Assembly: GCA_045658185.1 (NCBI GenBank)
Contig: JAZOUQ010000072.1
Coordinates: 1 to 45,946, forward strand
Source: Eubacteriales bacterium
Lineage (GTDB): Bacteria > Bacillota > Clostridia > Oscillospirales > CAG-272
Length of the DNA stretch: 45,946 bases
Direction: 5' to 3'
Shown: piece by piece, positions 5,416-45,946 of the stretch
Numbering within the stretch: position 1 is the first letter of the stretch
Layout of the letters: the number at the start of each line of letters is the position of its first letter
Notes under the pieces: model-generated
Database searches by the model: none
What the model was told of the DNA's origin: nothing
The model's input: the letters and a program-made list of their open reading frames with translations, nothing else
Translations under genes and position numbers: made by a program

Positions 5416-7370
<1,955 letters not shown>

Positions 7371-7387
7371 TCCCTTAAAAAACAGAA

Positions 7388-7416
7388 AAACGGCTGAGTC
7401 AATGACTCAGCCGTTT
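7388..7416. terminator. Bidirectional terminator, GGCTGAGTC family copy 1
   Basis: AAACGGCTGAGTC-AAT-GACTCAGCCGTTT between convergent genes. Confidence 0.85.
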
Positions 7417-7427
7417 ATTTTTATCTC

Positions 7428-8213
7428 TCAGGTTATATCTTTTCTTGTATACTTCCAATATGCGGCGGCGATGCCAATGGCGTTTATTATCAAGCCTACC
7501 GCAAGATATTTTATCTCCAAAGCCCCCTCGGGGACTATATAAGAGCCGTCGGTGTAGCCGAACGGTGTAACGAATTTGAGAAATTCCAAGTCCTCGGTAA
7601 GATTTGACACTATGTTGATAAAGTAGGTAGCAAATACGAATCCGATTGCCACTCCAAGTGAGCCACGACGCATAAATGCAGACACGCCGAAGGACACCGC
7701 GGCTATTTCAAGTTGAAGAACAAGATAAGCAAGAAAAATCAGTGCAAGTACCGACACGTCAGCTTCTACGCCTACCGCAAATACGCACACAGCCGTAACC
7801 GCAATTACCGCCACGTTGAGCAAACAAACCTGAATGAGCGTTGCGATCAACTTCTCCGTCACTATTCTCTTTCGAGAAAGCGGGTGGGTGAGCAAAAACT
7901 CCGCGGTATGCTCTTTTTCTTCCTTTGCGAGGGCAGACACTCCCGTAATAGCGGCAAACAACGCACCGCCAAGTCCAAGCACGTTTCCGCACTCAACAGC
8001 AAAGTATCCAATAAATTCTCCAAAGTTAAGCTGATCCATACCGAAAGCACTTGAAAACGCTCCCATCTCGGAAAACATTGCACTGACCTCATTCATCTGC
8101 GTTGACATCTCGGGATATATTATTACACACACGCCCAACATAAAGGAAATGGCACAGCTCCATATTATAATAGCCGTTCTGTTCAAACGAAGCTCGTGAA
8201 GCAAAAGCGTCAT
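7428..8213 (-). CDS. ABC-2 type transporter permease
   Basis: Multiple TM segments and a KEEKEHTAEFLLTHPLSRKRIVTEK motif; start placed at MTLLLHEL directly after the ATPase. Confidence 0.88.
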   Translation of the reverse strand: MTLLLHELRLNRTAIIIWSCAISFMLGVCVIIYPEMSTQMNEVSAMFSEMGAFSSAFGMDQLNFGEFIGYFAVECGNVLGLGGALFAAITGVSALAKEEKEHTAEFLLTHPLSRKRIVTEKLIATLIQVCLLNVAVIAVTAVCVFAVGVEADVSVLALIFLAYLVLQLEIAAVSFGVSAFMRRGSLGVAIGFVFATYFINIVSNLTEDLEFLKFVTPFGYTDGSYIVPEGALEIKYLAVGLIINAIGIAAAYWKYTRKDIT

Positions 8214-11151: not shown

Positions 11152-11360
11152 AACGCAGGACTTCTGTCCTGCGTTCTGTTATCACACGGGAATTTCGCCT
11201 GTGGCGAAGATTTTTGCTCGTAGCGACCTTGAGCGAGCTCAGGTCGGCTTTACTCGCAAAATGCGAACCCATATTCAAAACGCTTTGCGTTTTGAGTGGG
11301 GCGATTAACGACACGGCGTCAAAAAGAAGAACGCAGGACTTTTGTCCTGCGTTCTTCTTT
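11152..11360. repeat. tRNA-Glu 3'-end fold-back/duplication array with duplicated terminator
   Basis: AACGCAGGAC-TT(C/T)T-GTCCTGCGTTCT at 11152 and 11330 (25/26 identical); partial tRNA T-arm copy ACGGGAAT (11186) ... CGAACCCAT (11264) split by a 70-bp hairpin insert. Confidence 0.75.
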
Positions 11361-11361
11361 T

Positions 11362-11436
11362 TGGTGACCCGTACGGGAATCGAACCCATGTTTCCAGCGT
11401 GAGAGGCTAGCGTCTTAGCCGCTTGACCAACGGGCC
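11362..11436 (-). tRNA. tRNA-Glu(CTC)
   Basis: GGCCCGTTGGTCAAGCGGCTAAGACGCTAGCCT-CTC-ACGCTGGAAACATGGGTTCGATTCCCGTACGGGTCACCA cloverleaf with encoded CCA; TTGCAA-17-TATAAT promoter upstream. Confidence 0.97.
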
Positions 11437-43292: not shown

Positions 43293-44354
43293 ATGAAAAA
43301 ATTATTTAGTTTTGCCCTCACAATATGTATATGCCTGAGTATGTTATTTACCCTTGTTTCTTGCGACGATCACGAGCATGAATTTGAAAGTGAATGGTCA
43401 AGCGACAGTGACTATCATTGGTATGCGTGTGTAAACCCTGATTGTGACATTACCAAGGATAAGGCGGCACATGACTTTGAGGTCAAGTATGACGAAAACG
43501 GTACTCCGTACAACAAATGTACTGTTTGCGGAAAAGAAAATACAAATGTCAACACCGCACCGACACACGATCATATTTTCGCTGATGAATTTTCGTCAAG
43601 TGAGAATTTCCACTGGAAAGAATGTAAGACAGAGGGATGCTTTGAGGCAATAGAAAAGAGTGAGCATCAGTATGCTAACCCCCAGGTTGAGTATGCTGAT
43701 TCTTCCGTTACTATGACTTATATATGTGAGGTATGCAATTACAAGAAAGTGGAAACCAAAAAGGTAGACACCCAGTTGGATAACGCTACCGATTGGAATG
43801 AAACATTCGAAAATTTCGAGTTGACTAATTTCTCCATGTATGTATATATAAACGGTGTTGATGACGAAGACACAAGACACTGTATGGTTGACAGTGATAC
43901 TGTGTATTATTGCATTCCCAACAGCCGTGAGTTTTATTCCCAGAAAAATTCCGACGGAACATACACCACATATGTTAAGAATTGGGAAAACGATAAATAT
44001 GAAATACGTGACGATCATACGGAAGAATGGTTCGTTGCGGGAGCAACAGAACCCATTATAAGAGTTTCATTTGCCGATAATTTCGATAAGTTTACGTATG
44101 ATGCGGAAACAGCATCGTATACATGTTCCGAAGCCATCGAGGCTGAATATACTAATTTTTCGGGAACGAGTTGGCAAAAGCTCTACTGTTATAACAGCGT
44201 CATAAAAGTAAACGACGGAAAAATAACATACATTGAATGCGATTATAACTTTAATCTGGATAGTACCGGCACAAAATCATCGTTTATCTATTACAACATA
44301 GGAATAACCGACTTTTCTGTTCCACCTCAGGTTGTTGCAGAGGCTGGAAAATAA
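43293..44354 (+). CDS. Lipoprotein with two His/Cys-rich repeats
   Basis: Lipobox LVSC; two HxH...HWxxC...C...H...CxxC units; TTGACA-17-TACAAT promoter and AAGGAG RBS. Confidence 0.8.
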   Translation: MKKLFSFALTICICLSMLFTLVSCDDHEHEFESEWSSDSDYHWYACVNPDCDITKDKAAHDFEVKYDENGTPYNKCTVCGKENTNVNTAPTHDHIFADEFSSSENFHWKECKTEGCFEAIEKSEHQYANPQVEYADSSVTMTYICEVCNYKKVETKKVDTQLDNATDWNETFENFELTNFSMYVYINGVDDEDTRHCMVDSDTVYYCIPNSREFYSQKNSDGTYTTYVKNWENDKYEIRDDHTEEWFVAGATEPIIRVSFADNFDKFTYDAETASYTCSEAIEAEYTNFSGTSWQKLYCYNSVIKVNDGKITYIECDYNFNLDSTGTKSSFIYYNIGITDFSVPPQVVAEAGK

Positions 44355-44364
44355 TATATCAATA

Positions 44365-44535
44365 ACAAAACAGTAAATCGATACTTTTGTATCAATTTAC
44401 TGTTTTTTGTTGCAAAGGTAGGATTTGAAGCTCACGACCTTAGACAGCCAGTCGCAAGTTATTCGCGAGGTCGTGAAACACAGCTCTCATTTTCGTAACC
44501 AACGCAAAAAGGACACCTTTTGGTGTCCTTTGCGT
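44365..44535. repeat. tRNA-fMet 3'-end fold-back/duplication array
   Basis: Direct degenerate copy 44409-44440 (28/32 identical to 44538-44569), inverted copy 44467-44501, and hairpins at 44365-44410 and 44502-44535. Confidence 0.8.
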
Positions 44536-44581
44536 TGGTTGCGGAGGTGGGATTTGAACCTCACGACCTCCGGGTTATGAG
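44536..44581 (-). pseudogene. 3' half of initiator tRNA-fMet; att site of the integrated element
   Basis: Minus strand CTCATAACCCGGAGGTCGTGAGGTTCAAATCCCACCTCCGCAACCA; similarity stops at the anticodon loop and the 5' half is absent; CCC anticodon stem and A72 indicate the initiator tRNA. Confidence 0.88.
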
Positions 44582-44697
44582 GAGCTATATTGATGTTACT
44601 CCTGTTATCGATGTCCTTAACAGGACAGGCGTTGTAATCGCGAAACCGACCATCTCTCCGTAGAGGGCATCAAAAAACCGTCAAGTTAAAATTAGTT

Positions 44698-45834
44698 TCA
44701 CGCTTTTTTGAGCATGATGTAATCAAGCTTTTCTGCCGCATCCATATCCATCTCGGGAAGCACGTGGGTATATGTGTTTAGCGTTATATTAACATCTGAA
44801 TGACCTAACCTCTGTTGTACTACCCTTGGATTAACACCTGCCTGTATGAGTGCAGTTGCATTACTATGACGTAGATCGTGAAAACGGATAGATGGAAGCC
44901 TGTTGTCTTCAAGAAACCTTCTCCATTTCTGTGACATAGAGTCAGGACGTATCGGAGAGCCATCCTTCTGACGTATTACAAAGTTAAGATTTTGAAAATG
45001 ACCTTGATAGAAAAATAAGTCAGATAGGTACTTTGCTCTCTCTTCTCTGAGAACTGCCATAACCTCACTACCAAGGCGGATATCTCTTACACCAGCCTCT
45101 GTCTTAGGGGATTTAATGATGAAATCTTCCTCACCCCTTACCATATTGCTTCGTACCTGTAAAATGCTGTTCTTGAAGTCTATATTATCCCACCTCAGAG
45201 CCAACAATTCACCACGCCTAAGACCTGCAGTAACGCAGAGAAGAATGGGGAGATACATATCTGTATCCTTGGCTACGTCAAGCAGCTTATGTATCATTTT
45301 TATGTCATATACCTTAGCCTTGTATCTCTTAAGCTTGGGAAGAACAACGCCCTCACAAGGATTAAAGGGTATCATACGGAGTATAACTGCCTTCTTCATA
45401 GCGGCATTGATGTTGTTGTAGGTGTCACGGATGCTCTTGGGGGATAGATTTCTTGCTATCATATCATTAACCATCTTCTGCACGTGTTCTGCACGGAGAG
45501 ATTGAAGATATATATCCCCTATGGCTGGTTTAAGATAATTATTTATCTTAGTCTTGTAGCCTATCCTTGTGGTTTCCTGTATGTTAGGGAGGTATAGCTC
45601 CAACCACTCGTCAATCCATTCGGATATTTTCTTTGGACTCTTACGGACGGCTATACCACGTTCCATATCTACTATCATCTGCCTCATTACAACCTTAGCC
45701 TCTTTCATAGAGCCTACTGTCTTGTACATACGATTCCTTTTGCCTGTAAGCAAGTCACGCTCACCTTCAACAGTAATTTCGTATTTCTTCTCACCGTTAC
45801 CACGGACTCTTTCAACGATATTTCCTGATGCCAT
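44698..45834 (-). CDS. int: Tyrosine recombinase/integrase
   Basis: N-terminal arm-binding region, GLRRGELLALRW, PKT, RFHDLRHS, RLGHS..ITLNTYTHV (R-K-HxxR-H-Y catalytic set). Confidence 0.96.
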   Translation of the reverse strand: MASGNIVERVRGNGEKKYEITVEGERDLLTGKRNRMYKTVGSMKEAKVVMRQMIVDMERGIAVRKSPKKISEWIDEWLELYLPNIQETTRIGYKTKINNYLKPAIGDIYLQSLRAEHVQKMVNDMIARNLSPKSIRDTYNNINAAMKKAVILRMIPFNPCEGVVLPKLKRYKAKVYDIKMIHKLLDVAKDTDMYLPILLCVTAGLRRGELLALRWDNIDFKNSILQVRSNMVRGEEDFIIKSPKTEAGVRDIRLGSEVMAVLREERAKYLSDLFFYQGHFQNLNFVIRQKDGSPIRPDSMSQKWRRFLEDNRLPSIRFHDLRHSNATALIQAGVNPRVVQQRLGHSDVNITLNTYTHVLPEMDMDAAEKLDYIMLKKA

Positions 45835-45944: not shown

Positions 45945-45946
45945 CT

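Follow-up and report, generated by a model that had tools for sequence, protein, structure and literature searches.

The locus considered here raises the question of why the 3' end of an initiator tRNA should be repeated in both orientations, around terminator-like hairpins, beside an integrase gene. The window analysed is the whole of one contig (C72; JAZOUQ010000072.1, 45,946 nucleotides (nt), ending at position 45946) of an Eubacteriales bacterium, the assembly of which (G000; GCA_045658185.1) consists of 177 contigs. Read in the sense of the tRNA, positions 44365–44581 hold the 3' end of tRNA-fMet, a hairpin, an inverted copy of the tRNA end, a spacer, a direct copy of the tRNA end and another hairpin. 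All of these parts were found where the first-pass annotation, made from the letters alone, had placed them. That annotation took the array for a strand-specific structure that may be functional. Instead, the array probably combines the junction of an integrated island with a relic from a family of small tRNA-tail cassettes, both of which target the initiator tRNA gene.

The tRNA end in the array had been regarded as the true end of a tRNA gene, yet all that is present is a 46-nt fragment. ARAGORN finds no tRNA at 44536–44620, its only calls in the window being a tRNA-Glu and a tRNA-Arg, and the Rfam tRNA model has no match at the site of the fragment with E values up to 10. A tRNA gene at 44536–44581 was rejected on the lack of any cloverleaf call by these two and on the replacement of the 5' half by unrelated DNA. 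Positions 44535–44581 are identical (47/47) to positions 6020–6066 of contig C56, which comprise 46 nt of tRNA and 1 nt past CCA. C56 holds an intact tRNA-Met(CAT) at 5988–6065, behind tRNA-Leu(TAA); the terminator after this intact tRNA-fMet is not that of the window, and beyond it comes unrelated DNA with a GmrSD_N gene. The gene beside the fragment in the window encodes a protein with Phage_integrase (2.5e-27) and Phage_int_SAM_3 (6.5e-13) domains.

Among the features expected of an attachment (att) site junction, an exact partial copy of an intact tRNA that covers its 3' part and an adjacent integrase gene are both present. Because the partial copy is exact, the integrase adjoins it and no tRNA is called, 44536–44581 is best read as the displaced 3' half of tRNA-fMet, forming an attR-like distal junction of an integrated island. 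C56 would then carry attL and the rebuilt tRNA. The earlier suggestion that the array is related to att sites is borne out by the fragment and its integrase gene. The likeness to islands and prophages integrated in tRNA genes lies in the partial tRNA 3' copy, the boundary exactly at the anticodon loop, the adjacent integrase and, if the link to C56 holds, a gene rebuilt elsewhere. Anticodon-loop and T-loop sublocation classes of tRNA integration were reportedly distinguished by Williams in 2002. Integration of this type accounts for the 46-nt fragment, but not for the inverted copy or the cassette, and only one junction is on the contig.

It had also been proposed that the site is an integration hotspot. 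This is supported by the use of tRNA-fMet by at least two different integrases, that of the window and that of another genome of the genus, G031, in which the same fragment with the same boundary adjoins an integrase only 25% identical to that of the window. None of the 71 other genus genomes contains the DNA of the window integrase, and when viral contigs were searched for the other end of the island or attP, their integrases were just 27–32% identical and stood at contig ends. The contig itself ends 112 nt beyond the integrase gene. On C56, the GmrSD_N gene (type IV restriction-like, 393 aa) lies directly behind tRNA-fMet at 6250–7430 (L003 1729–2910, minus strand), which fits a defence island at a tRNA-fMet hotspot.

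The inverted and direct copies, for which the island does not account, have counterparts elsewhere. The direct copy matches the true end at 28/32 positions over 44409–44440, as read from the sequence, and at 29/35 positions ungapped over 44407–44441, where shuffles of the window (n = 200) reach at most 24/35. Related units hold a direct copy of the local tRNA 3' end at the position equivalent to 44409–44441, and the copy in the window would be the distal boundary repeat of a cassette. A repeat finder pairs the tRNA end with the inverted copy as an inverted repeat with 42-nt arms that are 74% complementary. Aligned alone and without gaps, the inverted copy matches at 24/35, merely equal to the best shuffle. 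It is accepted as real because of its homologues. Together with the hairpin beside it (hairpin 2) it has a 96% identical copy at C43:3221–3290 in the same genome, and it matches the sequence at the same position behind tRNA-fMet at 94% in genome G013 and at 86% in G024.

A search of relatives showed that in G013, G024, G023 and G001 an intact tRNA-Leu/tRNA-fMet pair has a similar hairpin behind it, and after this an inverted copy and a ~260-nt unit. A chimeric fold-back produced during the assembly of a metagenomic contig might be suspected, given the 177 contigs and the distance of only 1.4 kb between the site and the contig end. However, the copies have diverged (74–86%) and are not exact, and the same order of parts is present in independent genomes, so an assembly artefact is extremely improbable.

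Full-length units of the family are ~225–270 nt long and stand behind tRNA-fMet, tRNA-Cys, tRNA-Ser and tRNA-Pro genes. In the tRNA sense, the gene is followed by a hairpin between a leading A-tract and a trailing T-tract, an inverted copy of ~35 nt, a module, a direct copy and a second terminator. In an alignment of 22 unit stretches the interior is highly conserved, and a covariance model of the module, R1, was made from 19 aligned interiors (A1), with six proposed helices and 36 pairs. The module is 113 nt long. Standard pairs are found in 88.7% of its pair cells, compared with 34–41.5% when the partners are slid by 1–3 columns, and 19 of the 36 pairs are changed on both sides, compared with 2–8 when slid; 0 of 500 shuffles reach the observed covariation. 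Rfam returned only tRNA and chance hairpin matches for the window region and for eight family-unit loci, seven of them beside an intact tRNA. The 113-nt module is a structured family absent from Rfam. A search of the literature, which did not extend to supplementary files, found no description of such tRNA-tail units in Clostridia.

R1 identifies 91 copies in 48 of the 72 genus genomes, with up to six per genome, many of them no more than a few hundred bases from where a contig ends. Of 150 further genomes of the order, 6 also have matches, across five families, and there the copies are behind tRNA-fMet, tRNA-Pro(GGG) and tRNA-Cys. Thirty R1 loci were fetched, and in 17 there is a tRNA within ~350 nt, in a constant relative orientation. 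The unit is behind tRNA-fMet in six of these, behind tRNA-Cys(GCA) in seven and behind tRNA-Ser(GCT) in one; in one it is between tRNA-Leu and tRNA-fMet, and in two it is in front of tRNA-Arg. The units ahead of tRNA-Arg are L044/L080 (G071) and L087 (G089), and that of G071 is flanked by partial copies of the 5' part of the tRNA. This suggests that some members of the family use the 5' half of the tRNA gene.

Repeats of the tRNA end were assessed against shuffles at 21 loci. The first direct repeat above shuffles ends 215–385 nt (mostly 215–270) after the tRNA in 12 of these. The direct repeats measure 11–37 nt, and seven of them stop no more than two bases from the CCA end; at loci with a second unit, a further repeat ends 475–506 nt after the tRNA. 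The inverted copy beats 200 shuffles, with no more than two as good, in 10 of the 21 loci. Where it is present, the inverted copy follows the local tRNA, being fMet-like behind tRNA-fMet and Cys-like behind tRNA-Cys. It is common among the units, if not demonstrably universal. In the consensus fold of 10 units the two unit ends pair with each other; the duplex energies of cognate and non-cognate unit ends are uninformative, the segments containing halves of GC-rich hairpins. The number of units at the same tRNA varies among species, and some units are in tandem.

It is quite unlikely that the copies in the window are mere att scars, left by successive islands at tRNA-fMet, with no cassette family involved. 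Tandem integration leaves direct partial tRNA copies, and direct partial copies at a hotspot for at least two different integrases are what this explanation would predict. However, att duplication yields direct and not inverted copies, and the direct copy starts at the variable loop, where the island starts at the anticodon loop. In addition, the homologous units have a covarying interior and uniform length, and they occur at several tRNAs and in 48 of the 72 genus genomes.

In the window, R1 has no match in the array, whether default filters or none are applied. Compared with the units of C43 and G013, the array has kept the direct copy, a conserved 16-nt block (44451–44466), the inverted copy and the hairpin, while two internal stretches, the 113-nt module and a variable hairpin, are absent. 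The residual stem at 44405–44505 is no better than shuffles on either strand (z −1.4; 19 of 200 shuffles as good), and there is no promoter-like site in 44200–44800. On C43, two consensus promoter matches were found, neither positioned to drive the unit. Since the module is lost and there is no promoter-like site, the array looks like an internally deleted member of the family, a relic. Alternatively, the window copy might be a shortened but working gene on the minus strand, for a small RNA like that of the Escherichia coli RtT repeats. The inverted and direct copies could still pair over ~10–12 bp, and a terminator-like hairpin follows on the minus strand. This is nevertheless very unlikely, as the best conserved part of the family is gone, the hairpin that is left folds at shuffle level and the island separates the copy from the tRNA promoter upstream.

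The relic and the junction could then have arisen as follows. The tRNA-fMet gene would have had a small non-coding cassette as its tail before an island with a tyrosine integrase inserted at the anticodon loop. The original 3' half would have been left beside the integrase, and the rebuilt gene would be the one now on C56. Two internal deletions would have removed the module and the variable hairpin from the cassette. The positions of the features are collected in Table 1.

Table 1. Features of the array and the adjoining island end, by position in the window.
Feature	Position	Strand	Description
Hairpin 1	44367–44406		18-bp stem with loop TTTT, flanked by an A-tract and a T-tract; arms 94% complementary
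Direct copy of tRNA-fMet 3' end	44409–44441	−	Variable loop, T arm and acceptor 3' strand; CCA missing
Spacer	44442–44466	−	25 nt; 44451–44466 (16 nt) is the sole remnant of the conserved interior of the family
Inverted copy of tRNA-fMet 3' end	44467–44501	+	tRNA-like reading on the plus strand; 8 nt at the T loop swapped
Hairpin 2	44502–44535		Palindromic, terminator-like; A-tract on one side, T-tract on the other
tRNA-fMet 3' end sequence	44536–44570	−	Part of the 46-nt fragment 44536–44581
tRNA-fMet 3' fragment	44536–44581	−	46 nt, beginning with the first anticodon-loop base and ending with CCA
Island arm	44582–44697	−	Separates the tRNA fragment from the stop codon of the integrase gene; no relation to the 5' half of the tRNA
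Tyrosine recombinase (integrase) gene	44698–45834	−	378 aa; 116 nt from the tRNA fragment

A scan for terminators and promoters shows hairpin 1 to be terminator-like on the minus strand. It may serve as a terminator both for the open reading frame (ORF) at 43293–44354 on the plus strand and for minus-strand transcripts, and is probably the older terminator, behind the tRNA-end copy. Its kinship with hairpin 2, judged by eye, is weak. The core arms of hairpin 2 (44508–44517 and 44522–44531) are 100% complementary, and this hairpin would be common to the tRNA fragment and the cassette. It is multi-copy in the genus, the stretch being matched in 17 of 36 other genus genomes. A further hairpin was found by the repeat finder at 44670–44711, in the region of the boundary between the island arm and the integrase gene. 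Within the last codons of ORF 43293–44354, a 17-nt stretch at 44332–44348 is 76–82% like the tRNA-end copies, either by chance or possibly as the trace of a third and older copy.

The stem of hairpin 2 is also found in another repeat, at G000:C2:13018–13062 (L005 ~1490–1545) and G031:C1:42915–50174 (L019). This repeat has a conserved GC-rich stretch before or after the stem and stands after short ORFs. There are at least five copies in G031, spaced 0.9–3.2 kb apart, and similar arrays are present in G023, G033, G035 and G036. The layout of these arrays is cassette-like.

The strand argument of the first-pass annotation rested on a long hairpin and on the substitutions within it. A long hairpin forms on the plus strand because the tRNA end and the inverted copy lie on either side of a palindromic terminator. 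As RNA, 44460–44580 folds at −74.6 kcal/mol on the plus strand (z −10.95) and at −57.8 kcal/mol on the minus strand (z −9.5). The claim that the hairpin persists only on the strand antisense to the tRNA is therefore right in that this strand folds better, by 17 kcal/mol, but 'only' overstates the difference, since both strands are far beyond shuffles. With DNA parameters the asymmetry is small, at 4 kcal/mol (−37.2 on the plus strand versus −33.1 kcal/mol on the minus strand).

The acceptor-proximal block of 17 nt in the inverted copy has five changes, each of which is indeed C-to-T on the plus strand, as had been read from the sequence. This block contains 10 C and 1 G, so that transitions there are almost bound to be C-to-T. 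The direct copy has three C-to-T changes in its own tRNA-like sense, which is the opposite DNA strand. Over its full 35 nt the inverted copy has, in addition, two G-to-A changes as well as T-to-C, A-to-G, T-to-A and A-to-C changes. Substitutions in the family were tallied by hand from alignments of tRNA ends with inverted copies. In the 10 loci where the inverted copy beats shuffles there are 20 C>T, 10 A>G, 9 G>A and 9 T>C changes and 40 transversions, giving 30 C>T and A>G changes versus 18 other transitions. Most of the C>T changes appear to have been inherited once, as 12 of the 20 are one change set common to the related units of G013, G024 and G069, and the window has three of its four positions. 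Across all 21 loci there are 35 C>T and 25 G>A changes. The ratio, 1.4, is also that of C to G (14:10) in the final 38 nt of tRNA-fMet. Strand-biased substitution as a signal of selection was thus not upheld, the larger sample fitting base composition and shared ancestry.

Strand-specific selection on the ~100-nt plus-strand hairpin, whether as a single-stranded DNA recombination substrate, a decoy att site or an antisense tRNA-mimic RNA, is unlikely. The better RNA fold and the five C-to-T changes could be taken in its favour, as could the recurrence in the family of the palindrome of tRNA end, hairpin and inverted copy. The antisense strand also folds better in 16 of the 21 loci, but these loci are kin, their bias is in line with the proportion of C to G in the tRNA end, and the same excess is predicted by compositional decay. 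At the locus itself the substitutions are mixed, the module of the family is deleted and no promoter-like site was found, which leaves a strand-specific selected hairpin unsupported there. The appearance of pairing kept only through G-T would be the result of AT-biased decay in a C-rich, unconstrained copy. It is concluded that the asymmetry at this locus requires no selection.

The island junction and relic of a tRNA-tail cassette, as the preferred reading of the array, can be set against the remaining tRNAs of the genome. Each tRNA 3' end was compared in both orientations with the 330 nt behind it, and with shuffles, 27 of the 29 tRNAs having enough flank. Copies above all shuffles were found at seven tRNAs, so that the plan, far from being confined to this locus, recurs at other tRNAs as well as in relatives. 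Both direct and inverted copies are above shuffles at tRNA-Ser(CGA) and at tRNA-Lys(CTT) on C160. At tRNA-Lys(CTT) on C121, tRNA-Arg(ACG), tRNA-Gly(TCC) and tRNA-Asn(GTT), the last of which stands just upstream of tRNA-Lys(CTT) on C160, only the direct copy is, the inverted copy of tRNA-Arg(ACG) being equal to the best shuffle. At tRNA-Gln(CTG) only the inverted copy is above shuffles. Both tRNA-Lys(CTT) genes (C160 and C121) have a 29/34 to 31/32 copy of their own 3' half behind them.

The unit of tRNA-Arg(ACG), at C136:3980–4120, is compact at 137 nt. Its module is a single hairpin, preceded by a hairpin and an inverted T arm and followed by a direct copy (19/20) and a hairpin ~88% like the one that opens the unit, so that the terminator is duplicated. 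The tRNA-Ser(CGA) locus (C70, behind 1228) has a short motif in common with it. A third module is present in the window itself, behind tRNA-Glu(CTC) (11362–11436), between two near-identical hairpins (11152–11361, minus strand). These hairpins, at ~11321–11361 and 11152–11176, bracket a weak inverted copy and a split direct copy of the T arm and end, which are below significance in the shuffle test. The same module recurs on C166 and behind tRNA-Gln(CTG) on C1 (54/66 identical), where it splits a direct T-arm copy. The tail architecture is thus general in this genome, with at least three unrelated modules.

The only intact R1 unit of this genome is at C43:3000–3300 (L002 1270–1570), with no tRNA beside it. 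Past its hairpin just three bases are left, complementary to CCA, and unrelated DNA then extends as far as a DUF6809 gene, where the contig terminates. A further insertion, placed exactly at a tRNA terminus, might account for this, as might strain variation.

The closest known design is that of the RtT repeats. In the tyrT-tyrV region of E. coli K-12, each 178-bp unit ends in a perfect 19-nt copy of the tRNA-Tyr end (19/19, three times), and RtT units contain an inverted copy of the T-arm/acceptor strand (19/22). In the consensus of the Rfam model RF00391 the inverted copy pairs with the direct copy, closing the RNA and leaving the CCA tail free. One tyrT repeat unit encodes the small RNA rttR, according to the passage of PMC3318445 that cites Bosl and Kersten (1991). 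The rtT RNA is cut from the tyrT transcript and has a role in the stringent response, going by the relevant passages of PMC3318445 and bioRxiv 10.1101/2024.07.17.603846. As with RtT, the clostridial units are directly behind the tRNA gene, in the tRNA sense and possibly in tandem; they start with an inverted T-arm/acceptor copy, end with a direct copy of the tRNA end and have a GC-rich hairpin interior. They differ in the terminator-like hairpin after the tRNA, in their 113-nt module and in occurring behind several tRNA species. RF00391 matched four units in the E. coli control (133–137 bits), and had no match in the window (E up to 10) or in seven intact-unit loci (L012–L015, L090, L092 and L096) and the C43 locus, L002 (E up to 1); R1 had no match at the E. 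coli RtT locus. The relationship with RtT would be a likeness of design, not membership.

Other known systems share fewer of these features or were set aside. Cis-mobilizable elements (CIMEs) are likewise gene-less DNA between repeats of the target end, tandem behind the target and presumably served by a recombinase in trans. At 225–270 nt the units are too short for a recombinase gene and their conservation is that of paired helices, not of a reading frame, although no ORF scan was run. CIMEs are, however, reported to be kilobases long and to be decayed integrative and conjugative or integrative and mobilizable elements, whereas the units have a folded module and an inverted copy of the target. 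The integron attC site and the CTX-phage attP(+) are similar as imperfect palindromes of ~100 nt with recombination-site sequence in the stem. In the subfamily of the window there is also an unpaired block at the would-be crossover region, the T loop, and a variable apical hairpin; in the other subfamily (G023, G063), by contrast, the T loop is fully paired. The integrase beside the array is not an integron integrase, scoring 63.8 bits against model TIGR02249, the cut-off of which is 265. The inverse-core and core motifs reportedly typical of attC were not seen by eye at the arm ends, which are variable-loop and T-stem bases of the tRNA copy. Bacterial Y RNA (YrlA) was rejected as a candidate, with TROVE above cut-off in 0 of the 72 genus genomes and no Rfam match. 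Miniature elements derived from IS200/IS605, or repetitive extragenic palindromic elements, do not correspond to units bounded by 11–37-nt target repeats, although no transposase search was made.

How intact cassettes come to stand behind tRNA genes can be proposed from these comparisons. A recombinase acting in trans would insert them site-specifically, within the T arm or close to it, and each insertion would rebuild the tRNA end and bring its own terminator. The chances that the units are inserted in this way, with the tRNA end rebuilt, are judged to be about even. The proposal is made because the direct repeats reach CCA, units can be tandem and vary in number, their spread in the order is patchy and terminators are duplicated. 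The inverted copy presumably exists to pair with the tRNA-end copy, either as an RtT-like closure of the RNA or as a folded attachment site. The inverted and direct copies would in this case close a structured RNA or single strand, as in RtT.

Several results weigh against this account of the cassettes and of the junction. No empty site was found for any unit; when the clean tRNA-Pro unit of G058, a genome without a close relative, was used for the search, 35 of 40 other genomes matched the tRNA only. No circle junction was found, and the units have no linked recombinase. Nine of the 21 loci lack a clear direct repeat, either because none was found or because the locus is too short, and the inverted copy is at chance level in 6 of the 21, including both tRNA-Pro units, and borderline in 5. 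The terminator-like hairpin between the tRNA and the unit speaks against plain co-transcription of the RtT kind, and with no match between the models in either direction the kinship with RtT is architectural only. Wobble cells in the module (47 G-U versus 53 A-C) favour neither strand. At the locus, C56 and the window contig are not joined, so that attL on C56 is itself deduced, and the closest ortholog of the flanking ORF 43293–44354 (in G007, 71% identity) has no tRNA beside it, which leaves the native flank unproven.

The locus itself, as a junction and relic, has little at stake and its strand signal is compositional. The interest lies in the family, whose module, enclosed by copies of the local tRNA tail, is present in two thirds of the genus genomes and in five of the families that make up the wider sample from the order. 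A broader possibility, which is doubtful at present, is that RtT-type units are widespread miniature, gene-less, site-specific cassettes in tRNA tails, of which E. coli RtT would be one member. Their folded palindrome of ~100 nt would be the att site, much as in attC or attP(+), and they would be moved in trans by tRNA-targeting recombinases; the tRNA would be rebuilt with a new terminator, and the module might give rise to a small RNA freed by tRNA-processing enzymes. The units account for many partial tRNA copies, odd tRNA-like matches and contig breaks near tRNAs in metagenome-assembled genomes. RtT has been on record since the late 1970s, and the plan held in common with it suggests that what has stood for 45 years as a peculiarity of the tyrT operon is one case of a general tRNA-tail element.

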